From: a virus
Lineage: Duplodnaviria > Caudoviricetes
Direction: 5' to 3' (one strand)
Virus record (IMG/VR): IMGVR_UViG_3300037067_009128
Span: 32,001-96,000 of that record
Length of the DNA: 64,000 bases
Position numbers and translations under genes: made by a program
Shown here: in pieces, positions 5,103 to 42,022 of the stretch
Numbering within the stretch: position 1 is the stretch's first letter
How the letters are laid out: every line of letters begins with the position of its first letter
The notes under the pieces: model-generated
Told to the model about the DNA's origin: nothing
The model's input: the letters and a program-made list of their open reading frames with translations, nothing else
Databases searched by the model: none

Positions 5103-7835
5103 TTAATTACCCCACCTTTCTTTGAATACTTCAAATTCGGAATCAATTTTAACTTTTATTATATTAGAAATATCTATCTTTCTTTCAATACCATCGGGAT
5201 GAATTGAGAATGTTTTAGATGTCATTAGTTTAGGCGTAATTTCTTTTATCAATTCTAATTCATGTTCAGGTGATTCACCGTCAGCTTCATCATGTACTGT
5301 TATCAGGGGCCAACTTTCAAGATTATTATCCCTACAATAATCATATATTTTGATAAAACCCCATTGAGCAATATCGCTTGCTGTACCTTGTATTTGAGCG
5401 TTAATTCCGGCTCTTACAGCTTCTTCTCTAAAATATTTTTTATCACTAAATGCATCTGGTAGAATTCTACGTCTTCCAAATTTAGAATCTATCCAACCAT
5501 TACAAAGAATATGTTCTTTCATCTCAAGTTGATATTCTTTAGTTCTTTCAAATTCTGACCAAAACCATTCAGAATGTCTTTGTGCATCTTGCATTGTTAT
5601 TTTAGGTTCATCCCTTTCTAATTTCTCATTTACCTTTTCTACCTTAGTCTGATCACTCCCCAGATACATCCCTCCAAAATTACATAATTTAGTTAATTTT
5701 CTGTTTCTTTTCATTTGAAAATCAGTAGGATCATATTCAAGTTCTTTACCATTATAAAATACTTCTTTACAACCTCTCCAATGGATATCAATATTATTAT
5801 CTATATAATAAAGCATTATGGGGTCTTGTGCATAATCTGCCATGATTCTCATTTCAACTTGACTTTCATCACAACTCCAGAATCTCCAACCAGGTCTTGC
5901 TGTAAATACTCCACGTATGTTAGCAGTTTTAGTTTTTTTAGGCATATTTTGCAAATTAGGCCTTGAAGACAACCTTCCACTGACTGCTCCATGTAAGAGA
6001 TAACTCGTATGAACAAAACCATCTGGGTCCATTCTTGAATGCATTTTCTTACCTCTAAGGTAAGTAGAAATCATTTTTTGTTTTTTCTTATAATCTAATA
6101 ATGCAGCTATTAAATCTAATTCGCCTTTAAATTTATCTGGATGTTTTTCAAATTCTTCTCGTAGTCTTTTAATATGGTCTTGATCAGTACTTGCATAATC
6201 TGATGTTTGAGGTTGACCTTTTTCTTTTGTTTTAAATATAGGCCAACCAAGCTCAACAAACAATAATTCTTGTAATTGAACTGGGGAATTGAGATTGATT
6301 GTTCTTTGAAAAGTACTAAAGAACTCTTCTTCAATCTCTCTTAATTCTTTAGTATACTCATTAGCAATCTTTTCAGCATATTCTCTATCAAAGTATACCC
6401 CTCTTAATTCTGCCATTGTATAAACATGTTGTAATGGCATATAAAGATTATCCAATAAGAATTTGTTATCCAAGTAACAATTCTTTGCTCCTTGATAATT
6501 CTTTTTCTCTTCTTCAATCTCAGTAGCTAAATCTTCCCATAATCTAAGTGTTGCATCAGTATCTTTAGGGCCATATATACTCAATGTTGAAAGAGGAATG
6601 TCTGCATAATTTTCTACATCTTTTTTATCTTTTGTTAATAATCCATAAACAGATTGTTTATAACCTCTTAAATCAGGATATCTAACATCTGAGTTATATT
6701 CCAAACTATTTGGTACATTTTCATTTAATAGATAACTCATCAACATTGTGTCAGCAACAATATTATTAGGATGTATATCTAATTGCTTTATTAAGAACTG
6801 ATTATCGAATTTAACATTTTGATTACATTTCTCAATTTCTGGATTTTCTAACAATGTTTTCATTCTACCAACAACATATTCAGTAGCTGTAGGTCCTAAC
6901 CAGAAATAAAATTCATCTTTATCAAATGTTCCTAAATTATTAGTTTGTAAATATGATTCCCATTCTTTTTTTCTTTCATCATCAAAATCTTTTCCTTTAA
7001 CCCATAGAGGTAAGTAAATACCTGTATTTCTTTCACAAGAAAAACTAATACCTATGATTATATCCTCTCTCCATTCTTCAAAGATTACTTTTTTACCAAG
7101 TCTTTTCCTTTCAATTATTTCTTTCATCATTTGATATTTATTACCAGTAGTCTCAATATCATATACAAGTTTTTTACCTTGCATCAGATAATCAATGACA
7201 CCGTCAAATTCTTCAATAGTTTCTATTAAAATATAATCATTTTCTTTTTTAATATTTGTAGGTGAGTAATTTTTAATAAACTCTAAATCTTGTTCGAAAG
7301 GTAATATTAATTCTTCATTATTATATAAAGCACCTGGATGATAAGTTACAAAAATATCACAAGGATATTTTGTCATTGAATGTACTTGATTTCTTAATGA
7401 ATCTATTTTATCTTTTTTACCAAACATAGCTTCTACAACAGTTTTACCAAGAAGTATTATCTTTGGAGGTTTTACTTTAAAAAGTTCATTTGTTTTTAAG
7501 ATAGACTGAAGTATTAACTCAAGATTATCTGAACAACATTTAATATCTTTTTTATTAGGTGTCTTGTTTTCAGAATTTCTACAGAGTGTGATTGCTGTAT
7601 AAAAGAAATTAGTAATTCCTGTTTTTTCAATCTTTTCAAGAAATGTTTTTGAATCTCTTCCCCCAAGAATATTCTGATAATCTGTTCCTTTATCAGAAAT
7701 AAAAATATATTCTATGTATTTATCCCATTGACCTTCTGACACATCTTTAAACTTACCTTCATATATAAATTCTGGATTATAACAACTACAATTTATACAA
7801 TTATTATAAACTAGGTCAATCCCAAGTTTATCCAT
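5103..7835 (-). CDS. polA: Family A DNA polymerase with N-terminal UDG family-4-like domain and 3'-5' exonuclease
   Basis: CxxC, LCR, CC, IILLG, TYHP (UDG-like); YDIETTG (ExoI); SGRLSS; DESQVEMR (motif A); RKLTKLCNFGGMY (motif B); VHDE (motif C). Confidence 0.95.
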   Translation of the reverse strand: MDKLGIDLVYNNCINCSCYNPEFIYEGKFKDVSEGQWDKYIEYIFISDKGTDYQNILGGRDSKTFLEKIEKTGITNFFYTAITLCRNSENKTPNKKDIKCCSDNLELILQSILKTNELFKVKPPKIILLGKTVVEAMFGKKDKIDSLRNQVHSMTKYPCDIFVTYHPGALYNNEELILPFEQDLEFIKNYSPTNIKKENDYILIETIEEFDGVIDYLMQGKKLVYDIETTGNKYQMMKEIIERKRLGKKVIFEEWREDIIIGISFSCERNTGIYLPLWVKGKDFDDERKKEWESYLQTNNLGTFDKDEFYFWLGPTATEYVVGRMKTLLENPEIEKCNQNVKFDNQFLIKQLDIHPNNIVADTMLMSYLLNENVPNSLEYNSDVRYPDLRGYKQSVYGLLTKDKKDVENYADIPLSTLSIYGPKDTDATLRLWEDLATEIEEEKKNYQGAKNCYLDNKFLLDNLYMPLQHVYTMAELRGVYFDREYAEKIANEYTKELREIEEEFFSTFQRTINLNSPVQLQELLFVELGWPIFKTKEKGQPQTSDYASTDQDHIKRLREEFEKHPDKFKGELDLIAALLDYKKKQKMISTYLRGKKMHSRMDPDGFVHTSYLLHGAVSGRLSSRPNLQNMPKKTKTANIRGVFTARPGWRFWSCDESQVEMRIMADYAQDPIMLYYIDNNIDIHWRGCKEVFYNGKELEYDPTDFQMKRNRKLTKLCNFGGMYLGSDQTKVEKVNEKLERDEPKITMQDAQRHSEWFWSEFERTKEYQLEMKEHILCNGWIDSKFGRRRILPDAFSDKKYFREEAVRAGINAQIQGTASDIAQWGFIKIYDYCRDNNLESWPLITVHDEADGESPEHELELIKEITPKLMTSKTFSIHPDGIERKIDISNIIKVKIDSEFEVFKERWGN

Positions 7836-7893: not shown

Positions 7894-8580
7894 TTATAGA
7901 GGTAGTCCGAAATTTATTGCTTTTCTTTGTTTGAATAGTTCTCCATCTTTGTCAAAAAATCTCATATTCTTTTGATGAAGATCATCTCCTGGAACACCAA
8001 GATGAGCATGGAAATCATGTCTAATTAAACAAGTTCCAAAAAATGTTTGTTTTTTAAGTTTATTTGCTACTTCCATAAATTCATTGTCACACCAAAACCC
8101 TTTGTATTCTGGGTAATAAATGTAACCAAATCTATCAAAGTATTTTCTACCTATAATCGGTAATGTATTAAGATCAGTTCTGAATCCATCAAAGTACCAC
8201 AAAACTCCATCAGTATCAGGATAAAAATGTTGCATATCACTTCTAATTTGCTCATCATAGCCAATGTATACTGGAGTCATATCATCAGATGCTAATAAAA
8301 CAATATCAAAATCTTTATAAAAAACTCCAGCATTCATAGCATTAATCTTACAAGTATTATTATAAAATTGGATATCACAATAACTACCAAATTCACTAAT
8401 ATATCTAATTTTATTAATGATATCACTGTTATTCATTGTTTTATCATCAATATCACAAATAATATGAAATGATGTGTTTTTGTGGTCTTGGATTAAATCT
8501 TGATATTTTTGTAACATTTTTAAGAATTTTTCAGGTCTTTCTCTTGTGGGGAATTGAATTAAGACTTTTAATTTTGACAT
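7894..8580 (-). CDS. GT-A fold (GT2-like) glycosyltransferase
   Basis: FPTRER start, DIVLLASDDM (DxD-like), YYPEYKGFWCDNEF. Confidence 0.75.
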   Translation of the reverse strand: MSKLKVLIQFPTRERPEKFLKMLQKYQDLIQDHKNTSFHIICDIDDKTMNNSDIINKIRYISEFGSYCDIQFYNNTCKINAMNAGVFYKDFDIVLLASDDMTPVYIGYDEQIRSDMQHFYPDTDGVLWYFDGFRTDLNTLPIIGRKYFDRFGYIYYPEYKGFWCDNEFMEVANKLKKQTFFGTCLIRHDFHAHLGVPGDDLHQKNMRFFDKDGELFKQRKAINFGLPL

Positions 8581-9425
8581 TGTAATACCTCTTCTAATAA
8601 AAATTTCATTCTTTTATAATAAGTATGTTGTTTTGAAAAATTATAACCATTATTAGCTACCTCATATATATAATCAAGATGATTCTTACAATAATTAAGT
8701 TTTTCCATAAGATCATTTTTTGATTCATAACTTAAATAATCTATTTCATCTCTGAATCCTAATTCTTGATATTGTTTATCATAATTAGTTAATAAAACAG
8801 TACTGCATCCCAATGTTTCAAAACTTCTATAATTAATATCATTTGAGATATTTTTATTAAAATGAATACGATAAGAATTTATAGCTCTTACCATGTCTTT
8901 TCCTAATACCCATATATCTTTTTTTAATAAATATTTCGACTCTATTACATTGAACCATTCTTCTCTATTTAATACACTACCACAAAATCCTATAAAATAC
9001 CCTTTGATATTCATAGGATAAATCAATTCATCATCAAAACAATTTGGAAACCAAATTGTACGTATAGAATTCGAAGTTATACAATAATTTTTATTAGCTT
9101 GTAACATTGTGTGATATTTTCCACGTTTAAATTCTTGATTATAAATTTCAATTCCTCTCACATGTGCATCAATACACCATAATAATTTAATAGGTTTGGA
9201 ATATTGACTTAAATCTGGTACCCATCCAGAGTCGTAATTTTCAAGATTTATAATAACATCATAACTATTAAAATTGGGAATCTGGTTAAAATTATGATGA
9301 CCTTTACCCCAAACATCACAACTTTGTCCTAATTTAATTAATGCTCTTTGTGCAGAGAAACATTCTCTAAATTCCCTATTTGAATCATGAATCCCATTCT
9401 CTTGAATAATTAAAAATTTAAGCAT
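8568..9425 (-). CDS. GT-B fold glycosyltransferase (CgeB/Glyco_trans_1_2-like)
   Basis: WCIDAH, IGFCGS, INYRSFETLGC, HTYYKR; start moved to ATG 9425 behind GAGG. Confidence 0.8.
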   Translation of the reverse strand: MLKFLIIQENGIHDSNREFRECFSAQRALIKLGQSCDVWGKGHHNFNQIPNFNSYDVIINLENYDSGWVPDLSQYSKPIKLLWCIDAHVRGIEIYNQEFKRGKYHTMLQANKNYCITSNSIRTIWFPNCFDDELIYPMNIKGYFIGFCGSVLNREEWFNVIESKYLLKKDIWVLGKDMVRAINSYRIHFNKNISNDINYRSFETLGCSTVLLTNYDKQYQELGFRDEIDYLSYESKNDLMEKLNYCKNHLDYIYEVANNGYNFSKQHTYYKRMKFLLEEVLQCQN

Positions 9426-9927
9426 ATTGGTCCTCTGTATAAGCTGAAAAAGTATTCTCATTTTCATTTTTATGAATAGCAATATCATACCCATAACGTG
9501 CAAACATTTCAGGATTTAAAACTGAAATATGTTCTTCAAATGGGTTACCGTCTAGCGAACCTTGTGGATGTTCTCCTATAGGCATTTGATATATTACTAT
9601 TTTTTTAGCTTTTCTTTCAATGTCACCATTGATATTTAAAAAATCAAACCAAGTAATATGTTCTGGACCATGTAACCAAATAACAGCATCATAGTTAAAT
9701 TCTATCAGATCAATATTTTTAACATCTATATGGTGTACAGTTTTCACAAATTTAAAGATATCTCTACAATTATCTCCCCAAACTTCTAATACAGAAAATT
9801 CTCCCCCAATACTTTCTATATAATTTTGAATACTTCTGTCAGAATCGTGTCTGTACCCAATATTGAGTACAGACTTTACCTCCAATTCTTTAAATTTATC
9901 AATAACGAACTTTATTTGTTCAAGCAT
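9418..9927 (-). CDS. Class I SAM-dependent methyltransferase-like protein
   Basis: SVLNIG motif I, YDAVIWLHGPEH, NPFEEHIS. Confidence 0.65.
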   Translation of the reverse strand: MLEQIKFVIDKFKELEVKSVLNIGYRHDSDRSIQNYIESIGGEFSVLEVWGDNCRDIFKFVKTVHHIDVKNIDLIEFNYDAVIWLHGPEHITWFDFLNINGDIERKAKKIVIYQMPIGEHPQGSLDGNPFEEHISVLNPEMFARYGYDIAIHKNENENTFSAYTEDQYA

Positions 9928-9946
9928 TTTACTCCTAAGATTTTTT

Positions 9947-10945
9947 TTAATTTTTAACTATAGCACTTTTACCAAAATATTGAAAGTTTAATGTTTTATT
10001 GTCATATATCACATTATCATAAACAAACTTTGAAGGGAAAACTGTAATATTAAAACAAGGAGCTCCAAGATACCCAATTCTCATATGTGTTTGAGGAGAA
10101 TCTTTATACCCCTCAAAATAATCAAAATCGATCTTAATATCATAACTATAATCATTGATTTCTAATCCTAATCCACAACCTTCAATCATTCCTCTAAAAC
10201 TTGATCCTTGAGTTTTAGTTGCTGAAATACCGATAGGACATTTTTCAATGTCAAGATTAGCTCTCATTGCATTAAGCATATGTCCTTTAAAACCTATTTT
10301 ACAATCTTTTATAAATGCTTTCACATTAGATACTTGTCCTTTTAAATCCATTCCAGTTTCTGCTCCTGAAATGTATATATTTTCAAAATTAAATCTATGA
10401 TACCCATTAGGACGATTAACGGGATTAGATTTGATACCCGTAAAAACAGCTTTTGAATCACTTTTTATAATAGCAAAATTTCTAATATTCCAGTATTCTC
10501 CAGCATTCTTATCATATTTTATAGGATCTGTATTAGGTATAACTAAATCAGTAGCAATATGTTCTATTACTGGACTTCCATCAGTTATCCCTTTAACTTG
10601 CAATACAGTTCCATAATCCCAACCAGCATCTTCACCTATTATAGGAACTTCTGTTTTTATACCACCTTTAATTATTGGGTATTTACCATTAAACAATTTT
10701 ACTATTTGATGATCTTCTCTTGCTTTATAGCAAGCATCTTGTATTAAACTAGAACAATCACCATTCCTTGGTCTAACCCAGTATACAGAGTCTTCTGGAA
10801 TATCTGGAATACTCTCTTTCAATTCTTGTAGTGATTTTGCAATGTTAGTAAAATCAGTTTCATAACCTTGAACTTTTTCTTGAAATTCTTTTATAGAATT
10901 GTCTATTTGTTCAAACTTATTATTGAGATCTTCTCCTAGTGACAT
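9947..10945 (-). CDS. Coiled-coil plus right-handed beta-helix (pectate-lyase/tailspike-like) protein
   Basis: N-terminal heptads, DCSSLIQDAC...LFNGKY cap, repeated I-xx-C-xx-G rungs. Confidence 0.6.
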   Translation of the reverse strand: MSLGEDLNNKFEQIDNSIKEFQEKVQGYETDFTNIAKSLQELKESIPDIPEDSVYWVRPRNGDCSSLIQDACYKAREDHQIVKLFNGKYPIIKGGIKTEVPIIGEDAGWDYGTVLQVKGITDGSPVIEHIATDLVIPNTDPIKYDKNAGEYWNIRNFAIIKSDSKAVFTGIKSNPVNRPNGYHRFNFENIYISGAETGMDLKGQVSNVKAFIKDCKIGFKGHMLNAMRANLDIEKCPIGISATKTQGSSFRGMIEGCGLGLEINDYSYDIKIDFDYFEGYKDSPQTHMRIGYLGAPCFNITVFPSKFVYDNVIYDNKTLNFQYFGKSAIVKN

Positions 10946-10956
10946 AATATTTCCCT

Positions 10957-11670
10957 TTATAATAATTTATAATTAAGTACTTGTCTATAATTCTTTACAT
11001 CGTTACAAAATTTTGCATATAACTCCTTCCAATTTGGTTTTTGAATATCAAATATCCAGTGTAATGTTTTTATATGTGGATCATTTAAATTAATTTTATT
11101 AACATCATGGTAAGATTTTTGAAATGTAGATATTATTGGTTTAATATTGCCATAAACTAACTTATCATAATTATAAGCATTATATTCTTTATCACAAGTA
11201 TGAATCCAATTAAATTCAAATGCATTTAAAGCATCTAATGCGTCTTGTGTATAAGTATTAAAAGCAGGAATAAAATGGTCTCTATTGAATTTATTGACTT
11301 TAGACATTATATTAAAACTATGCTCAATTCTATGTTCTATTTCATGTTGAGATAAATCTTCAAATTCACCTCCATTAGGCCAAGTATTGATTATATCATC
11401 CCATCCAAATGCATGATCAAATTTATGATTAAATCCATGCATAACAATTTGTCCAACTTTAACTATTGAATTAAATAACTCTATATCTAATTCGTCTATT
11501 AATAATGGACTTACTCCTAGTAAATAAGGAACTTGATTTGATTCAAATATACTTAAAACTTCTGTAATTCTTTCTCTACACCAATTATGATTATAACCAG
11601 GATACCCATAAGGATAATCATCAATTCTAATAACCTGTATTCCTTCACGAACAAAATTATTTACTTCCAT
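10957..11670 (-). CDS. Polysaccharide deacetylase-like (DUF2334/CE4)
   Basis: IRIDD, LGVSP, MHGFNH, FIPAFN. Confidence 0.8.
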   Translation of the reverse strand: MEVNNFVREGIQVIRIDDYPYGYPGYNHNWCRERITEVLSIFESNQVPYLLGVSPLLIDELDIELFNSIVKVGQIVMHGFNHKFDHAFGWDDIINTWPNGGEFEDLSQHEIEHRIEHSFNIMSKVNKFNRDHFIPAFNTYTQDALDALNAFEFNWIHTCDKEYNAYNYDKLVYGNIKPIISTFQKSYHDVNKINLNDPHIKTLHWIFDIQKPNWKELYAKFCNDVKNYRQVLNYKLL

Positions 11671-11678
11671 TTAATTCC

Positions 11679-12233
11679 TTATAAAAATTTAAAAAATTGC
11701 ATTATATGTAATAGTCCACCACGTTCGCCATTTATGTCATAAGATTGATATCTATCTTCTTCATATATAAGTTTAGATGAAAATTCTCCAAAATCTATAA
11801 TTTTAAGCTTTCTATCTGTCATGTTATATAATATATTACTTTCATTCAAATCACCATGAACTATATTTCTTGAAAGTAAATCAATAATCATCTTACTTAG
11901 TTCAGAAATTATCCATAATTTATCTATAAGAGACAATACATATCCACAACTTTCTAAAGAAATATAACTATCTGGTATTAATTCTGTAAATATTTCAATA
12001 TGGTTATAAAAATCAGAGGCTTCTAAGAATTTAGGTACATAATCAATACCTTTTAATTCTTTTAAAAAATCTATTTCTTTATAACCTCTTAAACGATCAT
12101 TATCTACTTTACAAAATGCTTGTCTTTTTTCAGATTTATAATATTTACGATCTTTATTTATAGTTGTTGTATTAGGTATAAACTCAATAAATAAAGGATC
12201 ATTTTTAACACTTATCATTGATTTTTTCTCCAT
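11679..12233 (-). CDS. Protein-kinase-fold (RIO/Kdo/WbdD-like) kinase
   Basis: AFCK, KE helix, HGDLNESN catalytic loop, DFG. Confidence 0.8.
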   Translation of the reverse strand: MEKKSMISVKNDPLFIEFIPNTTTINKDRKYYKSEKRQAFCKVDNDRLRGYKEIDFLKELKGIDYVPKFLEASDFYNHIEIFTELIPDSYISLESCGYVLSLIDKLWIISELSKMIIDLLSRNIVHGDLNESNILYNMTDRKLKIIDFGEFSSKLIYEEDRYQSYDINGERGGLLHIMQFFKFL

Positions 12234-12886
12234 AATCTTAATACATTGTGGTATACACCATTTAATTCATGTACATTAGGTCTATTATTAGCTATAATCT
12301 GAGTATAATCTTTTAAAATTTTAGAATTCCATTGTTCATAATGATCATGCATACTTATATAAGGTACTTCATATTCTGCAGCAAGACCTAATTCAAAATT
12401 CATACAATCACTTGAATGGTCTGAATCATGAAAAAACAAATCAACTTGGTCATCTTTATAGATTTCATCAAAAACATCATATAAAACATTAAAGGTATAA
12501 TCTTTGATAAGTGTCCATCTATCTTTTAAAACTTTAAAAACTCTTTCTCCAGGTTCACCTATTGTTAGTTTATGAGACCCATCTGTAGAATTTTTACCAG
12601 AATCTATTGTTATAAGTTTACCTTTATTATTACGAAACATTCCATATAAAATTGCTTGAGTAGAAGCTCCATTTTGACATCCAGTTTCAATTACTATTTT
12701 AGGTTTTATTAATCTTGTTAATACATATAAAGGAAGATTATAAAATGAAAAAGAATCTCCAGGTCTTAACTCTTTACAAAATAATACTCCTTTATCTATT
12801 TCTTCATTGATAATATCAGAAGCTCCCAATTTTATAACTTCTTCAATAAAATCAGGCTGTAAATAATCTTTTATAATATCTTCCAT
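12215..12886 (-). CDS. SAM-dependent methyltransferase (Methyltransf_24-like)
   Basis: VIETGCQNGAST, LITID, DLFFHDSDH. Confidence 0.85.
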   Translation of the reverse strand: MEDIIKDYLQPDFIEEVIKLGASDIINEEIDKGVLFCKELRPGDSFSFYNLPLYVLTRLIKPKIVIETGCQNGASTQAILYGMFRNNKGKLITIDSGKNSTDGSHKLTIGEPGERVFKVLKDRWTLIKDYTFNVLYDVFDEIYKDDQVDLFFHDSDHSSDCMNFELGLAAEYEVPYISMHDHYEQWNSKILKDYTQIIANNRPNVHELNGVYHNVLRLWRKNQ

Positions 12887-12993
12887 TATACCCTCTTTTT
12901 AATTAATACTATTAAAATAATAATAAAAAGTTAATGTAATTATGATACCGAATGCAATCAGTATAAGTCCTCTTAAAAACCAATTATCTTCCA

Positions 12994-15057
12994 TTATATC
13001 CTCTTTTTTGAATATTCTTCATTAGTAAAACAAATCCATAAAGGTCTTCCAATTCTATCTGGGGCATTTATTCCTGGATCAGTGTTTTCTAGACGTTCAA
13101 CTTTATAAAATACATCTTTAAGTAAAGATTCATAAAATACATCTTTTCCATTTCTAATATCATCTGAATGTCCTTCAACTATTACAACACCATCCGTTAT
13201 TTCATTAATTTCTTTTAATATTAATTTTTGATTATTAAAATTTTCAATAATTGACAATAATAATACTACATTAAATCTAACATTATGAAAAACTTCTTTT
13301 GTCGATATATGATTAATATCTACATTCATAAAATTATATCTTAATTGAGGATATAATTCTTTTGACAATTCAATATAATCTTTATCAGAATCTATTCCGT
13401 AAACATTTTTGAATCCTAAAATATATTGATTAACAAAACAACCAAGATTACTTCCTATATCAATTAAGATATTATTAGGGATATTATAAGTATTGATTAC
13501 ATTATTAATTAAATTAATTCTACTTTGTGAATCTCTTAACCCTTCAAATACTATCCCTTCTATTTTAATTGTTTGATAAGGCATATAAAACTTCTTATTT
13601 TTGTATTCAAAAGTTTTGTTATCTACCCATCTTCCTTGTAATTTAGAAAGTATGTTTATTATCTTATTATCTATCATAACTAAAGCATCCTTTAATGGTT
13701 GAATAAAATTCTTTTCTCTATTGTTATTTTCATCAAAAATATCACCTACAAACTCAAAGTCTCTCCTTTCTGTAGGAAAGGGTTTTGGATTAGAGTTGTA
13801 AAAATCAAAATCACTATGTTCAATAGTTTCATCTTTAATAGATGCATATAAATTAGAAAGTAAATCCTGGTCAGCTTGTTTATAATCTTCCTTCTTTGCA
13901 TTTATAAAAAATTTTATATATTTATACAAAGCTCCATTTTTAACTCCCCACATCCCGGCCATTATCAAAGCCGTATGCCAAGGGTGGTCTCTCATTATAT
14001 GGAAATCTTTATCAGATTTTAACCATTCATCAACAGCAGCTTTTTCTCTTAAAGAAAGTCTTGAATCTGTGTCTCTAAAAATAACAATTTCTGCTTCATG
14101 TTTAAATGCAGCATTAAATCTCCATATTGTTGATGACCAATTTCCTAATTCTTCCATTTCAATAACATCAACATTATCAAAAGATTTTAACTCATCAATT
14201 ACATGTTTATAAATTTCTCCAACATAAAATAAACATCTCCAATCGGGGTATATCTCTTTAGCTAATTTAGCATTTTCGATAGCACCTTGTGTGTATTTTT
14301 TATCTATTCCCCACAAAGAGAAACTTATTACTTTTTCTTTGTATGCTATATAGTTAAGATTTAAATATTTATTATATTGTAAATAATCAATAATTCGTTT
14401 TTTTAGAAAAAAGAGAGCACCTGTTGGATTTAATGCCCAATCACCATTTTCATGAAGATTGCAATGCATTCCTCCATAACCGTAATGATCAACATAACTA
14501 GTTCTACTAATAATAACTTTATTATTATATAATTCTCCTACTCGCCAATCAAATCCCCCGTGTTTAGCTATTAACTTTCCACCATGTGTATTTGAGTCAT
14601 CAAGCACTCTTTTTACCATTTCTCTGTCAAGAAATATAGAAATTCCGGGAAGATACTCTCTTATAACTTCAAATTGTTCAGTATCATCAACTGTGAAATG
14701 AGTATGACAATTACTGTTATATAAACTTATTGGAACGTTCCACTTATCATGTAATAAGATTGCCATGTCTTCCCAGTTTGTATCATGGAAAGCATCATTA
14801 TCAGTTAAATAAAGAAACTCATATTCTGAATTATAAAAATCTTTAAAATGTTGTAATCTTTGTTCTTCAATTCCTTTATTTTTACTAATACTTACATGAT
14901 CAGAAAATTGTTTTAACCAAGTTTCATCATATTCAGTAGATCCATCATCATAAATAAAGATATCACTTTCATTTGATACTTGTTTTAATTGATTCAAACA
15001 AAGTTCTGTAATTTTCTTTCTATTGTAAGTTGTTACTGCAATATAAATCTTTTTCAA
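12994..15057 (-). CDS. Three-domain fusion: GT2 glycosyltransferase + second GT-A-like domain + methyltransferase
   Basis: TTYNR/YDDGS/TDND; KVISFSLWG...FRDTDSR...MRDHPWH...DQD; LIDIGSNLG. Confidence 0.8.
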   Translation of the reverse strand: MKKIYIAVTTYNRKKITELCLNQLKQVSNESDIFIYDDGSTEYDETWLKQFSDHVSISKNKGIEEQRLQHFKDFYNSEYEFLYLTDNDAFHDTNWEDMAILLHDKWNVPISLYNSNCHTHFTVDDTEQFEVIREYLPGISIFLDREMVKRVLDDSNTHGGKLIAKHGGFDWRVGELYNNKVIISRTSYVDHYGYGGMHCNLHENGDWALNPTGALFFLKKRIIDYLQYNKYLNLNYIAYKEKVISFSLWGIDKKYTQGAIENAKLAKEIYPDWRCLFYVGEIYKHVIDELKSFDNVDVIEMEELGNWSSTIWRFNAAFKHEAEIVIFRDTDSRLSLREKAAVDEWLKSDKDFHIMRDHPWHTALIMAGMWGVKNGALYKYIKFFINAKKEDYKQADQDLLSNLYASIKDETIEHSDFDFYNSNPKPFPTERRDFEFVGDIFDENNNREKNFIQPLKDALVMIDNKIINILSKLQGRWVDNKTFEYKNKKFYMPYQTIKIEGIVFEGLRDSQSRINLINNVINTYNIPNNILIDIGSNLGCFVNQYILGFKNVYGIDSDKDYIELSKELYPQLRYNFMNVDINHISTKEVFHNVRFNVVLLLSIIENFNNQKLILKEINEITDGVVIVEGHSDDIRNGKDVFYESLLKDVFYKVERLENTDPGINAPDRIGRPLWICFTNEEYSKKRI

Positions 15058-15240: not shown

Positions 15241-15672
15241 TTATATTTGAATCATGGGAACTTGGACTTCCATCATAAGCTTATCTCTTGCTTCATCTTT
15301 TATATATTTATTCAAATAAAATATTTTCTTAACATTAAATGTTATTAAAAGTTTATAACAATTAATACATGGTGGATGAGTTATATAACAAGTTAAAGAA
15401 TCATATTTTCTTTGAAGATTAGAAACAGCTGCAACTTCACCATGAGCACATCTTATACAATGATTATCATGCATTAAACAACCAACATCATCACAATGTT
15501 GAGTTTTTGAGGCAGATGAATTATAACCTATAGCTGCTATTCGATTTTTATCATCAACAAGAACACAACCTACTTTTAATCTAATACAAGTTGCACGTTG
15601 TGAAGCTAATGTTGCTATTCCCATAAATAATTCTTCTCTAGAAATACGTTTATTAACTTTCTTTTTAGGCAT
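15241..15672 (-). CDS. dCMP deaminase
   Basis: RATCIRLKVGC, GYN, HGE, PCINC. Confidence 0.9.
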   Translation of the reverse strand: MPKKKVNKRISREELFMGIATLASQRATCIRLKVGCVLVDDKNRIAAIGYNSSASKTQHCDDVGCLMHDNHCIRCAHGEVAAVSNLQRKYDSLTCYITHPPCINCYKLLITFNVKKIFYLNKYIKDEARDKLMMEVQVPMIQI

Positions 15673-17820: not shown

Positions 17821-18822
17821 TTATTCAGAAAGTAATTGATGTTTGTCTACTGATTGTAAGTATTCTTTGGCTTGTTTTAATATATATTCTCCTACTTGAG
17901 GAACAATACTTTTACCTATTTGATCTGCTACTCCATTTTCACTCCCAAAGAATTGAAAATCAAGTGGATACCCCATTAAGCAAGCATTTTCTCTATTAGT
18001 AAGAGTTCTATTTTCTGTTGGATGAATATATCTTGTAGAACTTCCCATTATTACTGGAGCAGGTTTATCAAGTGCAAGTCTTCTTTGTTGAGAACCGGAA
18101 TACATTGATTCTCCAGTTCTTAATCTTGACATCTTTTCAATTTGTTCATCAGAATGTTTTGGGAATTTATCATTATATAAAACACAACCTTCACTCCTAA
18201 CTTTTTCTAACATTTCAAATGCAGATCTGATAGTTAATTGACCTCGTTTGTCTTCTAAAGGTGGTTTTAAAAAGAATCTGAATGGGTATAAACTACCAAT
18301 AACAAATAATCTATCTCGTACTTGAGCAATTCCAACTTCAGTAGGGTTAATTCTGTGTTCTTCAATATAATAATCAGGAAGTTCAATTTCTTTCTTACTT
18401 ATCATATGTTTTAAAACTGTTCCACCTGCAGTGGCTTCAAATCTTAAATAATTTCTGACACTTGGTAAGTTTTCTAATATAAATATTATAGGTTTTCTAT
18501 CTATAATTTCTTGTACAAATTGAACATATTCAAATTCATCAAAGTCTTTAGTTTGAACATTAACAACATTTTTACTACTTCTACCTGCAGAACTAATTTC
18601 ACCACAAGATGGACTTCCCCAAACAATATCAGCTTTCATATTGTAGAACGCTTTCAATTGTTGAGACCACATAGTATCTGGGAAATTAAAACGATGTGTC
18701 TTAATATTAAAGTATTTTCTAGGTTCAATTGCCCATAAAGTTTTTAAACCTACATTTCTTGCTGCTAATAAAGAGGCTCCCGCTCCGCCAAAAATTACTC
18801 CAAATGTTATGATCTTTTCCAT
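17821..18822 (-). CDS. C5 DNA cytosine methyltransferase-like protein 1 (atypical)
   Basis: FGGAG, GSPSCG, ENL, QVRDRLF, RTLTNRENACLMGYP, QIGKSIVP. Confidence 0.85.
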   Translation of the reverse strand: MEKIITFGVIFGGAGASLLAARNVGLKTLWAIEPRKYFNIKTHRFNFPDTMWSQQLKAFYNMKADIVWGSPSCGEISSAGRSSKNVVNVQTKDFDEFEYVQFVQEIIDRKPIIFILENLPSVRNYLRFEATAGGTVLKHMISKKEIELPDYYIEEHRINPTEVGIAQVRDRLFVIGSLYPFRFFLKPPLEDKRGQLTIRSAFEMLEKVRSEGCVLYNDKFPKHSDEQIEKMSRLRTGESMYSGSQQRRLALDKPAPVIMGSSTRYIHPTENRTLTNRENACLMGYPLDFQFFGSENGVADQIGKSIVPQVGEYILKQAKEYLQSVDKHQLLSE

Positions 18823-19136
18823 TATTTATAATCGTATTCTAATGAGTTGTGTAAAAAGTTAATTTCAGGAATAGATAATTCATAATTAATATTTGAACTG
18901 ATATAAAATTCTATGACTTCAAGAAATGCAATCGATTGTTCTATCAATAAAATTTCTTCTTTGATTTTATTTCTTACTTCTTCTTTTAATTCTTTACTTA
19001 AATTTCCTTTTTCAGTATCAATTATAAGATTTTCCTTTCTATCAATACTTGCTTTTAATTTTCCTATTTTTGAAGTTGAAAGAGATTGAATTTGACTACC
19101 AGAAATATTGATTTTTAATGATTCAAACATAAACAC
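18822..19136 (-). CDS. Hypothetical protein between the two MTase-like genes
   Basis: ORF track. Confidence 0.6.
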   Translation of the reverse strand: MFMFESLKINISGSQIQSLSTSKIGKLKASIDRKENLIIDTEKGNLSKELKEEVRNKIKEEILLIEQSIAFLEVIEFYISSNINYELSIPEINFLHNSLEYDYK

Positions 19137-20089
19137 CTCATTATTTGTTTTCCTAATTCTTCAGCAACTGGAGGAGAAATACTTTTGCCTATTAAATCTA
19201 AAGAATCATTTTCTTTTCCTATAAATTCAAAATCTAAAGGAAATCCTTGAAAAGTTGCACATTCTCTTACATTTAAGACTCTTGGTTCAAATGGATGTAC
19301 ATATCTTGTACAATGAGAAGTAATTGTAGGGCATACTTTTTGAGGGTTTAATTTCCTATTATTCTGACCACCATAAAACGATTCACCATATTTTAAATTT
19401 TTGAAACCTTCCATTCTTTCTTTTGAATGGTGTGGATTTTCATCATTATATAATGGAGGTTTAAAATTTAAATCTCTTATTTCTCTTTCATTATCCAAAG
19501 TTTCTAATACTTCATTTACACTTTTAACATGGTAGTTAATAGGCATCTTAAAAGTAAAATTATATTTCTTCTTATATAAAATTACGTAAATCCTGTTTCT
19601 TTGTTGTGGAACTCCAAAAAAATAACTATTGAGATTTAAAAATTCAGAATTGTATTCTCCATATTCAATAAATGCTTCAGTAGGTAAATGGATTACTCTA
19701 TCTTTTTGAAACGAAAAGAATTTTTCTATTTTTGTTAGATATTCAATAATTATAAACTCAGCATTTCTTGATAATAATTTTCTTAAAGATTTAATAAAAT
19801 CAAAATCATCAATTGTAAAGGTTTTCAATTCACTACGATCTTCTCGTTTCATTCCTAATGATGATAGCTGTGCACAAGACGGAGAAGAAATCAAAACATC
19901 AATTTTCATATTATCAAATTCATCAAAATCATCTGAGATATTTATGTTAGGAAAATGGTATTCCCAAGTTTTAATATTTTTATAGAAAAAATCTCTATCA
20001 TCTAATATAAATGAAGGTTCAAATCCAGCTTGTTTCAATCCAAGAATATTACCTATACCAGAAGAAATTCCACCACAAGTTTTATTCAT
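19115..20089 (-). CDS. C5 DNA cytosine methyltransferase-like protein 2 (atypical)
   Basis: SSGIG, SSPSCAQ, EYL in place of ENV, QQRNRIY, LNVRECATFQGFP, IGKSISP. Confidence 0.85.
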   Translation of the reverse strand: MNKTCGGISSGIGNILGLKQAGFEPSFILDDRDFFYKNIKTWEYHFPNINISDDFDEFDNMKIDVLISSPSCAQLSSLGMKREDRSELKTFTIDDFDFIKSLRKLLSRNAEFIIIEYLTKIEKFFSFQKDRVIHLPTEAFIEYGEYNSEFLNLNSYFFGVPQQRNRIYVILYKKKYNFTFKMPINYHVKSVNEVLETLDNEREIRDLNFKPPLYNDENPHHSKERMEGFKNLKYGESFYGGQNNRKLNPQKVCPTITSHCTRYVHPFEPRVLNVRECATFQGFPLDFEFIGKENDSLDLIGKSISPPVAEELGKQIMRCLCLNH

Positions 20090-20661
20090 TTAATTCCTCT
20101 CATACATTCAGTTTTATCAATTTTAGCTTGAGTTAAAACCTTTTTAACATAATCTTGTGTTAAAACAGTTTTAGTATCTATTTTAATTATAGGTGCTTCA
20201 TTCATAATTAAATAATCAACTGTTTTCATATAAATCTTTTGAATTTCTAATATTTCTTCAAATGTAAATAATCTTTCACCTCTAGTTTCAAATCTTGATT
20301 TTAAAACATTTTCATCTGAACAATAAGTAATAAAAACTTGAACATCTTTATTTAATTCTTTATTGAAAAGGTATTTATAAACATAATCAATATCTGTATC
20401 TCTATTAAAGAATTTAGAATAAACCAAAGATGAAATTAATCCTCTATCTAGTACAAAATCATATTGTTTAGCTAAAGGAAATATTGAATCAAAGAAAAAT
20501 CTTGTGATCACTTCAATTTGATTCTCATTTAATTTCTCACGTTTATCTAATTTTAAGATATCTAATCTTTTTTTAATAACAGGGATACATTTAATATCAG
20601 AAATCATTTTTGCTAAAGTTGATTTCCCCGATAAATCAACTCCGTCTACTATTATTAACAT
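20086..20661 (-). CDS. dNMP kinase (thymidylate-kinase-like)
   Basis: DGVDLSGKST P-loop, VLDRGLISSLVY, RGE lid. Confidence 0.85.
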   Translation of the reverse strand: MLIIVDGVDLSGKSTLAKMISDIKCIPVIKKRLDILKLDKREKLNENQIEVITRFFFDSIFPLAKQYDFVLDRGLISSLVYSKFFNRDTDIDYVYKYLFNKELNKDVQVFITYCSDENVLKSRFETRGERLFTFEEILEIQKIYMKTVDYLIMNEAPIIKIDTKTVLTQDYVKKVLTQAKIDKTECMRGIK

Positions 20662-21099: not shown

Positions 21100-22035
21100 T
21101 TATAATTTAATAACATTAAAATCTAATAAATTTTTTGAGTTTATCGACCAGTCATCTAAAAGTTTATCCTTTTTTAGGTATGCATGTAGTATTGCAAAAT
21201 AATAACTTTTAGCAAAATTACTACTAAATTCTTTATCATTTATACCTAGTTCACTAACTTCATAATTAGGTACTTCGCACAAATCAATTAGGTCATCTAT
21301 CAACTCAACATCTTTTTTAGTAAATGATCCATCATCTTCAAAAAATATCCAATCTTGTTTTATTAGTTTTGTGATAGTATTCTTTACTGAACCGGTAACA
21401 TCTCTTTTCTTTTGATAGTATATTTCAGGTACAAAATGAAAATAACTACCTAATTTTAAATTAGTTTCTGAAGCAACATATCTTTGTAATAATGTATGGT
21501 GAAAAACATCATAAGGTAATAAATTCATAACATCATTAACTCTCATATTAACATACACATCAAGTTCACCATTTCTGTTCATAAACTGTATTGTTAGTGT
21601 ACAAGGTCTTCTTGGATAAAGATCTCTAGTCATAAGATATTTATCATCCCATATATTTAGAATACATTCAGAATATCCTTTTTTAAGACGTTTTATAATA
21701 ACAGGTAATTGAGAATTATAAACATCTCCATAACTATAACAAAATCCTTCAAAATCTTCTTCTTCATTTTTTAATTTTTTTGCCCAATTAGGTCTAAATT
21801 GATAAGCTGTTCCTGGATTATTTCTACTTTCTTTTTGAGAAAGACGATTAACTCCTTCTACAAAACACCAAGACCAATTCTTTCTAATAGATATTAAAGA
21901 ATTACAAGGATTTGTTAATTCAAAAAATACTCCTGGGTAACTCTTAAATTTTCCTACAATTTGTCCTGTTGATTCAAGAGTTTCTAAGATTTTTAAATAT
22001 ATATTATAAAAATTATTTTCTTTAAGAATTAACAT
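21100..22035 (-). CDS. Thymidylate-synthase-fold protein 1 (divergent, dCMP-type Asp)
   Basis: YSYG, QLPVII, RPCT catalytic Cys, MRVND...PYD. Confidence 0.8.
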   Translation of the reverse strand: MLILKENNFYNIYLKILETLESTGQIVGKFKSYPGVFFELTNPCNSLISIRKNWSWCFVEGVNRLSQKESRNNPGTAYQFRPNWAKKLKNEEEDFEGFCYSYGDVYNSQLPVIIKRLKKGYSECILNIWDDKYLMTRDLYPRRPCTLTIQFMNRNGELDVYVNMRVNDVMNLLPYDVFHHTLLQRYVASETNLKLGSYFHFVPEIYYQKKRDVTGSVKNTITKLIKQDWIFFEDDGSFTKKDVELIDDLIDLCEVPNYEVSELGINDKEFSSNFAKSYYFAILHAYLKKDKLLDDWSINSKNLLDFNVIKL

Positions 22036-23071
22036 AATCAACCCAATTTGGATACATTTTTTGAAATTCTTCATGTAAAGGAATCATCAATTCCCTCATT
22101 TGAGGATGTGCAGCATTAGATGTTCTCATATAAAAAATCCATTGCCATTCTTTCAGATTAGTAGTAACAACAATTTCCGTTTTTATATGGTGACTCAATT
22201 TACCTCTAGCTTGTTGAGGTTGAAGACCATAATTTATAGCATTTAAATATCTTGATTCATTAATTGCACAATCAAAGAAGAATTCTTTATCAATATCAGA
22301 ACTAAACTCAAAATTTCTTTTTTCACCTTCATGATATTCATGTTCAGATATGTTAACCCAAGGAGGTATTATATAAGTTAATTGATTTCCAAATTTATCT
22401 TTACTATAATTACAATATCTTGTACTTTCTTGTGAGAATGCAATATTGTTACGATGTCTTACAAGTTCATGAGTAACTCCTCTATCACAAACAAAATTAA
22501 CAGAAACACATTCATGAATTAACTTCTCATCAAATGTTAAAAGTTCAGTATTGTTGAGTTCAAAGAATAAGGTTTGATTATCTTTTTCATATGTATGTTT
22601 AATTACCGGAAAAGGTTCTTTGTTTATTAAATCTTTAAAAAATAATGAGTATTTATTAATTAAATAATAATACAATTCTAAAAACATAAAATTATCTTCT
22701 ATGTCATTTACTTGTTTAATATAATTAAAAACATCAATAATTAAATTTCTAAATGCTCTTACATTTCCTGAGACAAAACATCTATGATAACTATGGGCTT
22801 TATCTCTTGAGAGTTTTAAATATTTTGTTGACATTCCATCATTGAATGTAATAAACCATTTATAGAATGCTGAATTAGTTATTGCAAAAATAAGATTATG
22901 ATGTTCAAGAACTGAATAATGATTTCTTTCTTTTATTTTACTTATAAACTTAATATAACTATCATCAGTAATTAAACATTCAGATTGATAACAAACCCTT
23001 CCGCAATTTTCTATTTTTTTATAAGGGTTATCTTCTTTTATAATTTCAAAATAAGGTTTTATTAATCTCAT
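22022..23071 (-). CDS. thyX: Flavin-dependent thymidylate synthase
   Basis: GRVCYQS, HYSVLEH, RGVTHELVRHR...SQESTRY, AHPQMR. Confidence 0.95.
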   Translation of the reverse strand: MRLIKPYFEIIKEDNPYKKIENCGRVCYQSECLITDDSYIKFISKIKERNHYSVLEHHNLIFAITNSAFYKWFITFNDGMSTKYLKLSRDKAHSYHRCFVSGNVRAFRNLIIDVFNYIKQVNDIEDNFMFLELYYYLINKYSLFFKDLINKEPFPVIKHTYEKDNQTLFFELNNTELLTFDEKLIHECVSVNFVCDRGVTHELVRHRNNIAFSQESTRYCNYSKDKFGNQLTYIIPPWVNISEHEYHEGEKRNFEFSSDIDKEFFFDCAINESRYLNAINYGLQPQQARGKLSHHIKTEIVVTTNLKEWQWIFYMRTSNAAHPQMRELMIPLHEEFQKMYPNWVDYVNS

Positions 23072-23320: not shown

Positions 23321-23956
23321 TTAATAATTACTTTCTTGTCGAAATTGATTTACTCTTGATTTTTGATAATACATATTAAGAATTTCAATAGGTTTCATTT
23401 TTAAAAATAAGATGTTAAGATATTTAATAAAAGCTTTTGATAAAAACGATTGATACTTGACAATATCTGTTGAAACATGAGTACATTTCCATGGTTTTAT
23501 TTTTAAACAATTCATAGTTTTACCAAGGATTTTTATAAAATCTCTCAATTCTATATCAAGAGTTTCATCATCTAATAATTGAGCATCAAGATATTTATCA
23601 TAAGGTTTAAAATCACAAAAAACTTCAGCATCTATACTTGATAATAAACAAAGTTCAACAATAAAATGTAAACCGTCCATCATTTCTTCTTTATAGTGTA
23701 CTTCATCATGAAAATCATCTAAAGCTTCTAAAGCCTCACCAATTTCTTCAACAATTCTCCAAGCAAAATTCTTCAATAAATTCTGATCTTTACCATTATC
23801 TATATTACAAAATAAATTCTCTGGATAATAAAATCCATTTTTAACTTCAATAGGTGCATATTTTATCGCTAATTCATGTTGACGTTTAAAGATCAGAGGA
23901 ATTAGATCGATGGTATCTTTTTCAGAAAATTCTGTGGTATAATCATTAATATTCAT
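23321..23956 (-). CDS. Dimeric all-alpha dUTPase/dCTPase (T4 gp56-like)
   Basis: EEIGE, KEEMMDGLHF, KPWK, YYQKSRVNQFRQESNY. Confidence 0.8.
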   Translation of the reverse strand: MNINDYTTEFSEKDTIDLIPLIFKRQHELAIKYAPIEVKNGFYYPENLFCNIDNGKDQNLLKNFAWRIVEEIGEALEALDDFHDEVHYKEEMMDGLHFIVELCLLSSIDAEVFCDFKPYDKYLDAQLLDDETLDIELRDFIKILGKTMNCLKIKPWKCTHVSTDIVKYQSFLSKAFIKYLNILFLKMKPIEILNMYYQKSRVNQFRQESNY

Positions 23957-41194: not shown

Positions 41195-42022
41195 ATGAGA
41201 ATATATCAAACACTTTATGAATGTACTTCTGAAACAGAGAGGAATCTTTGGGAAATGGGTATTGACGTACCCATCAAAACAATGCAAAATAAAAAAGTTG
41301 AAGGTGATCCAAATTTGGGGATGACTAAAGAGATTATGGGTGAGACTTATAAAATAATAGATCCTTTAAATATTGAAGGAATCATTAAAGCATATAATCA
41401 TATGTTTAAATTTGATTCAAAAAATTTAAAAATTAGTGAAGAAGTAAATAAAAACTTACATTGGGTTCAAGAAGAATTTAAAGAAAGAATTTTTAATCCT
41501 AGTAAAGGTAATTGTGATTTTATTAATCCTGGGGAAGCTTGGGAAATCAGAAAAGAAACTTGGGAACCATTTTTAGTAAATGGTAAATTTGAGTATACTT
41601 ATAATGAAAGATTGCGTGCATTTAATCAATTACAAAAAGTAATTAATCATTTAAAATCTGATATCAATTCAAGAAGAGCAGTAATTAATATATATATAGG
41701 TCCACCATTTTCAGGTTATTTTAATGATGAGGATGGTATTTGTGATGGTTATGAACCAGGAGATCTACAAGGACTTAAAGATATTAAAAGAGTTCCATGT
41801 TCAGTTACTTATTCATTTTTATATAGAGAAAATAAGTTACATACATTTTACCATATGAGAAGTTCTGATTTTTATTTACATTGGATTAACGATATGCATC
41901 TTGCAGCAAAATTCGGTAAGTATGTTGCAGATGAATTGAAAGTTGATTCAGGTGAATTGATAGTTTATATCAATTCATTACATGCATATTACGGTGAACT
42001 TAAAAAAAGAAAGATATTTTAA
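41195..42022 (+). CDS. Thymidylate-synthase-fold protein 2 (dCMP hydroxymethylase/methylase-like)
   Basis: YTYNER, SRRA, VPCS, MRSSDFYLHWIND, SLHAY. Confidence 0.85.
   Translation: MRIYQTLYECTSETERNLWEMGIDVPIKTMQNKKVEGDPNLGMTKEIMGETYKIIDPLNIEGIIKAYNHMFKFDSKNLKISEEVNKNLHWVQEEFKERIFNPSKGNCDFINPGEAWEIRKETWEPFLVNGKFEYTYNERLRAFNQLQKVINHLKSDINSRRAVINIYIGPPFSGYFNDEDGICDGYEPGDLQGLKDIKRVPCSVTYSFLYRENKLHTFYHMRSSDFYLHWINDMHLAAKFGKYVADELKVDSGELIVYINSLHAYYGELKKRKIF

Follow-up and report, generated by a model that had tools for sequence, protein, structure and literature searches.

The DNA analysed here is a stretch of 64,000 nucleotides (the window, from whose first letter the coordinates below are counted) that occupies positions 32,001 to 96,000 of the IMG/VR virus record IMGVR_UViG_3300037067_009128, a record of 117 kb that is about 95% complete and has about 26% G+C. 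The minus strand carries a replication and nucleotide-metabolism module, and within this module lie two genes for homologues of cytosine-C5 methyltransferases (C5-MTases), a small open reading frame (ORF) between them, and a gene for a deoxynucleoside monophosphate (dNMP) kinase. We refer to the two homologues as MT-A (17821-18822, minus strand, 333 amino acids) and MT-B (19115-20089, minus strand, 324 amino acids). Judged from sequence comparison, the pair is a natural lineage of C5-MTase homologues of a lysine type, with a remodelled cofactor pocket and with a link to thymidylate-synthase (TS) homologues. The reading that we favour, with somewhat less than even confidence, is that MT-A and MT-B would be post-replicative DNA cytosine-C5 alkyltransferases that add an anionic group other than methyl.

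Motifs of the pair and the pocket signature of its clade

Both ORFs are intact, and both proteins span the full PF00145 profile (positions 6-323) with E-values of 1.3e-25 for MT-A and 2.8e-32 for MT-B; their mutual identity is 33% (E 3e-57). The AlphaFold2 model of MT-A (pLDDT 90.9) has the ordinary C5-MTase fold, and its top Foldseek matches are 3g7u, DNMT1, M.HaeIII and 8YF3. Residues were aligned against M.HaeIII, 3g7u, M.HhaI and SpCmoX, and positions are given in M.HhaI numbering. The catalytic Cys of motif IV, the Glu of motif VI and both Arg residues of motif VIII (QVRDR in MT-A, QQRNR in MT-B) are present in the two proteins. Motif IV reads G-S-P-S-C-G in MT-A and S-S-P-S-C-A in MT-B in place of GPPCQ (SPSCGE and SPSCAQ in full); the Gln that follows the catalytic Cys, Gln82 in M.HhaI, is Gly in the former and Ala in the latter, and neither protein has the canonical Pro-Cys-Gln. 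In motif II, MT-A has I-E-P-R-K-Y-F and MT-B has L-D-D-R-D-F-F. The two share G-K-S-I in motif X, whose Lys falls into the column of HhaI Asn304 and SpCmoX Arg350. MT-B has S-S-G-I-G for FxGxG and E-Y-L for ENV, where MT-A has F-G-G-A-G and E-N-L. The adenosine-binding elements are recognisable in both proteins: MT-A has FGGAG and the Glu, and MT-B has GxG and an Asp but carries Ser at the Phe position. A preliminary description of this DNA had listed the deviations S-P-S-C, (E/D)xRxxF (with Y or F before the last F in the pair) and GKSI and the SSGIG and EYL of MT-B, and the alignments bear out every one of them; the dNMP kinase that it placed next to the pair indeed overlaps the start of MT-B. 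It had overlooked the loss of the Gln after the catalytic Cys and the conserved ORF of 104 amino acids between the paralogues.

The deviations are found throughout a larger group. Its 17 closer relatives of MT-A, with 47-65% identity to that protein, are metagenomic throughout, and a profile search of 1.84 billion cluster representatives gave about 50 matches at 192-502 bits, with ordinary MTases at 157 bits or less. The group is monophyletic: 47 full-length members lie on one side of a branch with support of 100 in the Shimodaira-Hasegawa-like approximate likelihood ratio test (SH-aLRT), and the MT-A and MT-B types form subclades with values of 99 and 100, respectively. The split between this clade and the ordinary enzymes persisted after a second CmoX-like sequence was added to the tree. 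All members come from one group of uncultivated aquatic phages; among cultured phages there was no megablast match, and the best protein identities were 26% for the MTase and 24% for PolA.

The clade was compared with 56-108 ordinary C5-MTases scored at the same columns, the number varying by column. Cys81, Glu119, Arg163 and Arg165 are invariant in the clade (51-53 members each), Gly22 is found in 49 of 49 members and Gly20 in 48 of 49, and the acid of motif II (Glu40) is always Glu or Asp. In place of Asp42, all 49 of the clade members scored have Arg, which none of the ordinary enzymes has there. At position 82 the clade has lost Gln altogether (Lys 18, Gly 16, Ala 12), whereas 72 of 91 ordinary enzymes have Gln there, and position 304 is never Asn (Lys 38, Cys 7, Arg 4), whereas 89 of 108 ordinary enzymes have Asn. 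All 47 clade members that could be scored carry Lys or Arg at one of these two positions; such a charge occurs in 7 of 56 comparators, and the same 56 have Gln in 43 and Asn in 46 cases. Where motif X has Cys, Ser or Ala, a Lys follows the catalytic Cys in every clade case. Gly78 is replaced by Ser, Gln or Asn, and Pro80 is Ser, Asp or still Pro. The MT-B subclade always has EY and G(K/R), and the aromatic residue of motif I is gone from it. Because the deviations are fixed across about 50 cluster representatives and nearly absent from ordinary C5-MTases, those of the pair are, on this comparison, not chance.

A functional switch through the Ser that replaces Pro before the Cys was considered and rejected; the same Ser occurs in 2 of 91 ordinary enzymes that keep both Gln and Asn. 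An internal salt bridge as the cause of the Lys was likewise rejected, since no acidic partner is consistent across the subtypes.

The transferred group

We infer that the covalent Cys-C6 chemistry of the C5-methyltransferases is retained in both proteins, which would make them catalytically active on DNA, and that an adenosyl-sulfonium cofactor is still bound. The pocket at the transferable group would have been rebuilt, such that a Lys or Arg holds a larger, negatively charged group and not a methyl group. We prefer this anionic-group reading because the nucleophilic machinery and the adenosine site are kept while the methyl side is rebuilt around a positive charge. The simplest candidate group would be carboxymethyl from carboxy-S-adenosylmethionine (Cx-SAM), as in CmoX, and the nearest functional precedent is Cx-SAM-dependent carboxymethyl transfer (PMC12783734, PMC12015181). 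In M.HhaI, residues Gln82, Asn304 and Tyr254 adjoin the transferable carbon, and replacing them lowers methyl transfer and admits extended groups; Q82A and N304A reduce methyl transfer and favour extended groups (PMC3526304). Arg350 of SpCmoX contacts the carboxylate of Cx-SAM in the crystal, and the enzyme takes Cx-SAM, not S-adenosylmethionine (SAM) (PMC12783734). M.MpeI N374K and M.MedI N377K gain carboxymethyl transfer, with a kcat/KM for M.MedI N377K that goes from 0.04 to 14.5 (about 360-fold), and the motif II change E45D of M.MpeI further aids this transfer (PMC12015181). MT-B has a natural Asp at the M.MpeI E45 position.

Several points weigh against this reading. CmoA and CmoY were searched for with TIGR00740, PF00733, SpCmoA, SpCmoY and a second CmoA, and these searches came back empty for the 95%-complete genome, for 14 related viral records (one of them 94% and another 100% complete) and for 18 clade loci. 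The control is P0147, the sole match outside the clade with S-P-P-C and G-R, whose gene lies directly after one for CmoA (E 2e-30 to SpCmoA) and one for an Asn-synthase-type ligase. Cx-SAM supplied by the host could be the donor. If the module of TS, kinase and nucleoside triphosphate (NTP) pyrophosphatase replaced all deoxycytidine (dC) before replication, then no cytosine with a free C5-H would be left as a substrate. In addition, M.MedI N377K still methylates fully with SAM, so that Lys is compatible with methylation (PMC12015181), and in unconstrained trees the CmoX-like enzymes fall to the ordinary side of the clade stem. Because the phage lacks CmoA, we also considered a carboxylate-bearing group drawn from SAM itself; 3-amino-3-carboxypropyl might be such a group.

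An alternative explanation is that MT-A and MT-B are ordinary SAM-dependent methyltransferases that form 5-methylcytosine (5mC), albeit of an unusual lineage. The pocket changes would then be neutral or would serve loop closure or DNA contacts, and the two copies would differ only in sequence specificity. Several orphan MTases are frequent in phages, CmoA is present in no member of the clade, and the full-length PF00145 match includes every catalytic residue, all of which would fit this explanation, as would the SAM-dependent methylation retained by the N-to-K variants of M.MedI (PMC12015181). However, the loss of both Gln82 and Asn304 in 47 of 47 members, the compensating Lys or Arg and the change from Asp42 to Arg in 49 of 49 point to selection and not to drift. 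The Lys or Arg has no consistent acidic salt-bridge partner that would explain it otherwise, and the lowered methyl transfer of M.HhaI Q82A and N304A (PMC3526304) also speaks against plain methylation. The target-recognition domain (TRD) argues against two specificities: its mean identity is 0.33, compared with 0.31 for the catalytic core, among the clade members and paralogues, whereas the corresponding values for ordinary enzymes are 0.22 and 0.35. Taken from these sequences, such conservation would be poorly compatible with two different sequence specificities and would allow for a heteromer or for two steps in succession. We consider ordinary methylation unlikely.

The anionic-group reading invites a comparison with CmoX of Synechococcus phage S-B43 (PDB 8YF3; PMC12783734). 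Like the clade, CmoX is a C5-MTase homologue from a phage, and its residue in the HhaI Asn304 column is basic; it likewise lacks the Gln after the catalytic Cys, has Ser as the first residue of S-P-x-C, and shares the fold (8YF3 is at rank 10 in Foldseek). It differs in having Arg and S-P-P-C, whereas in the clade this residue is Lys, or the Lys stands at the Gln82 position, and the pair has S-P-S-C; the change from Asp42 to Arg is specific to the clade. Furthermore, the clade is linked to Asp-type TS homologues in the absence of CmoA and CmoY, whereas the CmoX system comes with a phage CmoA and usually with a CmoY ligase nearby. The clade would fail the filter of SPPC plus Arg350 used for CmoX (PMC12783734), and strict membership in the published CmoX family was rejected on S-P-P-C, Arg and context. 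The clade profile scores 8YF3 at 49 bits and M.HhaI at 71 bits. Nevertheless, approximately unbiased (AU) tests did not reject a union of the clade with the CmoX-like enzymes, and the constrained tree was better than the free one by about 33 log-likelihood units. The proposal that the basic residue arose independently of CmoX was withdrawn after these tests. In a different phage (L145:3268-7578), we observed a complete cassette of CmoA, a ligase of the glutamine-amidotransferase/Asn-synthase kind and CmoX (S-P-P-C, G-R), located by genes for a uracil-DNA glycosylase (UDG), PolA, gp32 and RecA; this cassette appears to belong to the ammonia-ligase branch left uncharacterised in the CmoX paper.

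Engineered enzymes provide a second comparison. M.MpeI N374K, also in the form E45D/N374K, and M.MedI N377K have the same Asn-to-Lys change in motif X, and MT-B shares the Glu-to-Asp change in motif II as well (PMC12015181). However, these are CpG methylases that were mutated at single sites in the laboratory and retain P-C-Q, whereas the clade is natural and has four co-varying pocket changes. In M.HhaI Q82A/Y254S/N304A the same two positions are altered, which shows that they control how large a group is transferred (PMC3526304), but there small neutral residues make way for synthetic cofactors, whereas the clade is always cationic. Phage islands that combine MTase, TET and glycosyltransferase genes likewise employ phage C5-MTases to open cytosine hypermodification, with glycosyltransferases nearby; in the published accounts, the MTases make ordinary 5mC, which TET-like oxidation then turns into 5-hydroxymethylcytosine (5hmC) (PMC8256090; bioRxiv 10.1101/2023.12.21.572611). 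A TET/JBP gene is absent from this genome, and TET is missing from its relatives as well.

The problem of a missing substrate in fully C5-substituted phage DNA would disappear if the target were something else, be it host DNA, RNA or tRNA (as for DNMT2) or a nucleotide. However, the closest folds and profiles are those of DNA enzymes with a TRD of the DNA type (3g7u, DNMT1, M.HaeIII, M.HhaI), and the genes lie within the replication module. A target other than phage DNA is, in our view, very improbable.

To our knowledge, the transfer of a non-methyl group by natural C5-MTase homologues was first shown only in 2025, with CmoX. If the anionic-group reading is true, the clade would be a second natural lineage of non-methyl C5 transferases, possibly a sister to CmoX. 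Its Lys solution mirrors the laboratory N-to-K neomorphs used in methylome sequencing; it has no cofactor synthase and is connected to a cytosine pathway that operates before replication. Such a lineage could bring to light a new base in DNA, a new donor, or a new scheme that hypermodifies cytosine in two stages, and the clade might be a source of natural, evolved carboxymethyl or alkyl transferases for DNA labelling and sequencing chemistry. As a rule for metagenome searches, one would look for the absence of Gln82 and Asn304, a Lys or Arg at one of the two, and an Arg at Asp42.

The tandem genes and the small protein between them

The gene for the dNMP/thymidylate kinase-like protein (20086-20661, minus strand; PF02223 with E 7e-6, phrog_761 with E 2e-12) ends in an overlap with the MT-B start that reads ATGA. 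The conserved small ORF (18822-19136, minus strand; about 102-104 amino acids, with its likely ATG at 19130) starts about 17 nt before the MT-B stop with a GAGG upstream, and its own stop overlaps the start of MT-A as TAATG. Because of these three overlaps, the kinase, MT-B, the 104-amino-acid ORF and MT-A are, going by the gene layout, translationally coupled. The order of the four genes is kept in five of five close relatives, with variable inserts, and kinase orthologues lie directly upstream of the MTase pair in the relatives. Homologues of the small protein occur only in the five phages with the tandem pair. Its AlphaFold2 model (pLDDT 87) predicts a helical hairpin between two short strands; searches of Pfam, PHROG and PADLOC gave no match to it, and in the PDB no match was significant, with only generic helical-hairpin folds returned.

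This arrangement could mean that MT-B is a cofactor-impaired partner and that the pair, possibly with the 104-amino-acid protein, forms a heteromer like DNMT3A/3L, which would fit any chemistry. The translational coupling from the kinase through MT-A and the conservation of the trio in the five close relatives are in line with such a complex. The heterodimer suggested in the preliminary description would be compatible with the coupling, with the conserved small ORF and with the recurrence of pairs. Clade MTase pairs recur in at least four sublineages; the others are represented by L141 and L045, by L142, and by L143. The pair in L142 combines a P-C-K/G-C type with a K-C-S/G-R type, and in L143 an ORF of 88 amino acids lies between the genes. 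Two of the pair lineages have one partner in which the aromatic residue that stacks on adenine is missing and motif II carries Asp for Glu. However, MT-B keeps the Cys, the Glu, both Arg residues, GxG and the Lys/Arg under purifying selection, and from these residues it looks catalytically competent; moreover, many relatives have one enzyme only. We give an impaired MT-B within a heteromer a rather low probability.

The inserts between the coupled genes differ from phage to phage, with an N6/N4 MTase and DUF1599 in L012 and homing endonucleases in L007. In L003 (8616-10008), an S-adenosylmethionine decarboxylase (PF02675) and DUF3326 stand between the small ORF and MT-A, which places a SAM-modifying enzyme inside the pair. 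Selfish elements abound in the modules of L007, L140 and L141, with LAGLIDADG genes on either side of MT-A and inteins within PolA, within DnaB and within one TS homologue. A TnpB of the IS605 type separates the MTase from the primase in this group of relatives.

Thymidylate-synthase homologues and the surrounding module

The window encodes two TS homologues of the Asp type. TS1 (21100-22074, minus strand; PF00303 match) is divergent; it has the catalytic Cys (RRPC), Asp at the position of E. coli ThyA Asn177, a retained Asp169, and Arg at the Leu143 position. TS2 (41195-42022, plus strand) has RVPC ... RSSD ... ND and the canonical clamps for the phosphate and the 3'-OH. Every complete clade neighbourhood has two TS homologues, which belong to two orthologous types, and all TS homologues of the clade loci have Asp at Asn177, Asp169 kept, and Arg at Leu143, next to C5. 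By the residue rules of PMC13326640, from which these diagnostic positions were taken, the TS homologues would act on deoxycytidine monophosphate (dCMP); the Arg at Leu143 and the retained Asp169 place them outside the published 5hoC-synthase signature. TS1 also has R-E or S-E where TS2 has the cross-dimer phosphate pair R-R/R-Q, and it carries a C-terminal extension of about 90-100 amino acids. One could imagine a TS1/TS2 heterodimer in which only one active site is complete.

Three further enzymes complete this part of the module. A ThyX-type thymidylate synthase (22022-23071, minus strand; PF02511 with E 1e-34) is the predicted route to dTMP. An all-alpha NTP pyrophosphatase of the dUTPase_2/MazG-like kind (23321-23956, minus strand; PF08761 and phrog_12184 matches), which is kept in the relatives, is a candidate dCTPase/dUTPase by its sequence. 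The dCMP deaminase (15241-15672, minus strand; Pfam dCMP_cyt_deam_1 in the loci) adjoins the primase in all relatives. With an Asp-type TS, a dNMP kinase, an NTP pyrophosphatase and a dCMP deaminase, the module has the components of a T4-like one, and the preliminary description was right to place atypical C5-MTase paralogues in a cytosine nucleotide-modification module of this kind. The T4-type hydroxymethylcytosine pathway (gp42, gp1, gp56, cd) shares the Asp-type TS, the dNMP kinase, the all-alpha NTPase and the dCMP deaminase context, and sometimes glycosyltransferases, and other pathways built on TS homologues, such as that of the 5hoC synthases (PMC13326640), are comparable in context; we know of no T4-like system with a C5-MTase homologue. 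Together, the pair of Asp-type TS homologues, the dNMP kinase and the MTase or MTases form a conserved cassette, which would determine how cytosine is modified in the DNA of the phage.

Co-occurrence with Asp-type TS genes, which had been proposed as a check, holds in every complete neighbourhood. However, all clade loci share one replication-module backbone, and the co-occurrence is therefore conservation within one phage group and not an independent association; its use as phylogenetically independent evidence was tempered for this reason. In more distant relatives, a single MTase lies directly behind a TS homologue of 244-250 amino acids, TS2 being directly upstream.

These neighbours suggest a further explanation, in which 5hmC-containing DNA would be made by way of the TS homologues and the MTase-like proteins would derivatise the 5hmC already in place. 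They would attack C6, drive off the hydroxyl, perhaps after its activation, and couple a nucleophile to the resulting exocyclic methylene, with the Lys or Arg binding the leaving group or an anionic nucleophile. C5-MTases reportedly carry out such chemistry on 5hmC in vitro (Liutkeviciute et al.). The invariable linkage to two Asp-type TS homologues, dNMP kinase, NTP pyrophosphatase and dCMP deaminase favours this explanation, as do the position of TS2 directly upstream of the MTase in single-MTase relatives and the Arg at ThyA Leu143, next to C5, in both TS types; a fully C5-substituted genome would, furthermore, leave ordinary C5 alkylation without a substrate. However, the in-vitro chemistry is cofactor-free, whereas the adenosine-binding glycines and the ribose-binding acid are strictly kept in the clade. 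The cassette has no conserved kinase that could activate 5hmC, and the full replacement of dC is a supposition of this explanation. We rate exchange on 5hmC as improbable, and below the anionic-group reading, because the adenosine-binding residues are strictly kept, which argues for the use of a cofactor. The suggestion in the preliminary description that the two proteins are repurposed base-modifying enzymes thus survives in part: the methyl side of the pocket is rebuilt across the clade, which speaks against plain methylation (PMC3526304), but the cofactor-free mode on 5hmC that it invoked is at odds with the conserved Gly20, Gly22 and motif II acid, which call for an adenosyl cofactor.

A more specific proposal, which we put forward with clear reserve and think more likely wrong than right, is that the clade installs a cytosine C5 adduct new to DNA and that the paired paralogues and the small protein act as one complex. 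Candidates for the adduct would be 5-(3-amino-3-carboxypropyl)cytosine, another carboxylate-bearing group derived from SAM, or an exchange product on 5hmC. With any of these, the enzymes would act as the post-replicative half of the cassette, which extends across a widespread group of uncultivated aquatic phages.

Other genes of the region vary more among the relatives. An accessory island for glycan tailoring (7894-15057, minus strand) encodes GT2 and GT1-like glycosyltransferase domains, DUF2334, a small protein-kinase-like product and more than one class I MTase domain (several in all); it sits between the dCMP deaminase and PolA, and at this position it is absent from L003 and L007. Glycosyltransferase cassettes are accessory in this phage, in L012 and in L140. 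Beside the MTase genes they take the form of MTase-GT1 fusions in L012, and of a UDP-glucose dehydrogenase with a GT2/GT4 protein in L140. PolA (5103-7835, minus strand) has an N-terminal domain of the UDG superfamily (weak match to PF03167), and the fusion is kept in the relatives. An N-terminal UDG domain on PolA is also known from SPO1-like and other modified-base phages. ARAGORN found zero tRNA genes in the 117-kb genome.

In the genome collections, matches were found only in contigs binned into metagenome-assembled genomes (MAGs) of DPANN archaea. Two contigs of the group, L137 (DATDSF010000038.1, 121 kb) and L138 (NZDU01000050.1, 14 kb), are in MAGs labelled Candidatus Nanoarchaeia and Candidatus Pacearchaeota. 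Because these phages have bacterial-type DnaB, DnaG, sigma-70-like, PolA and RecA genes, the placement probably reflects mis-binning of phage contigs with low G+C, and the contigs are probably not from archaeal viruses. Among cultured phages of C. perfringens, Clostridium phage CPD4 (L144; MK017819.1, 47422-49645) has a dUTPase_2-like gene with 37% identity and a TS2-type homologue with 32% identity, and the 12.7 kb inspected around the two carry no annotated C5-MTase. The C. perfringens phages could serve as a tractable system in which to determine the product of TS2.

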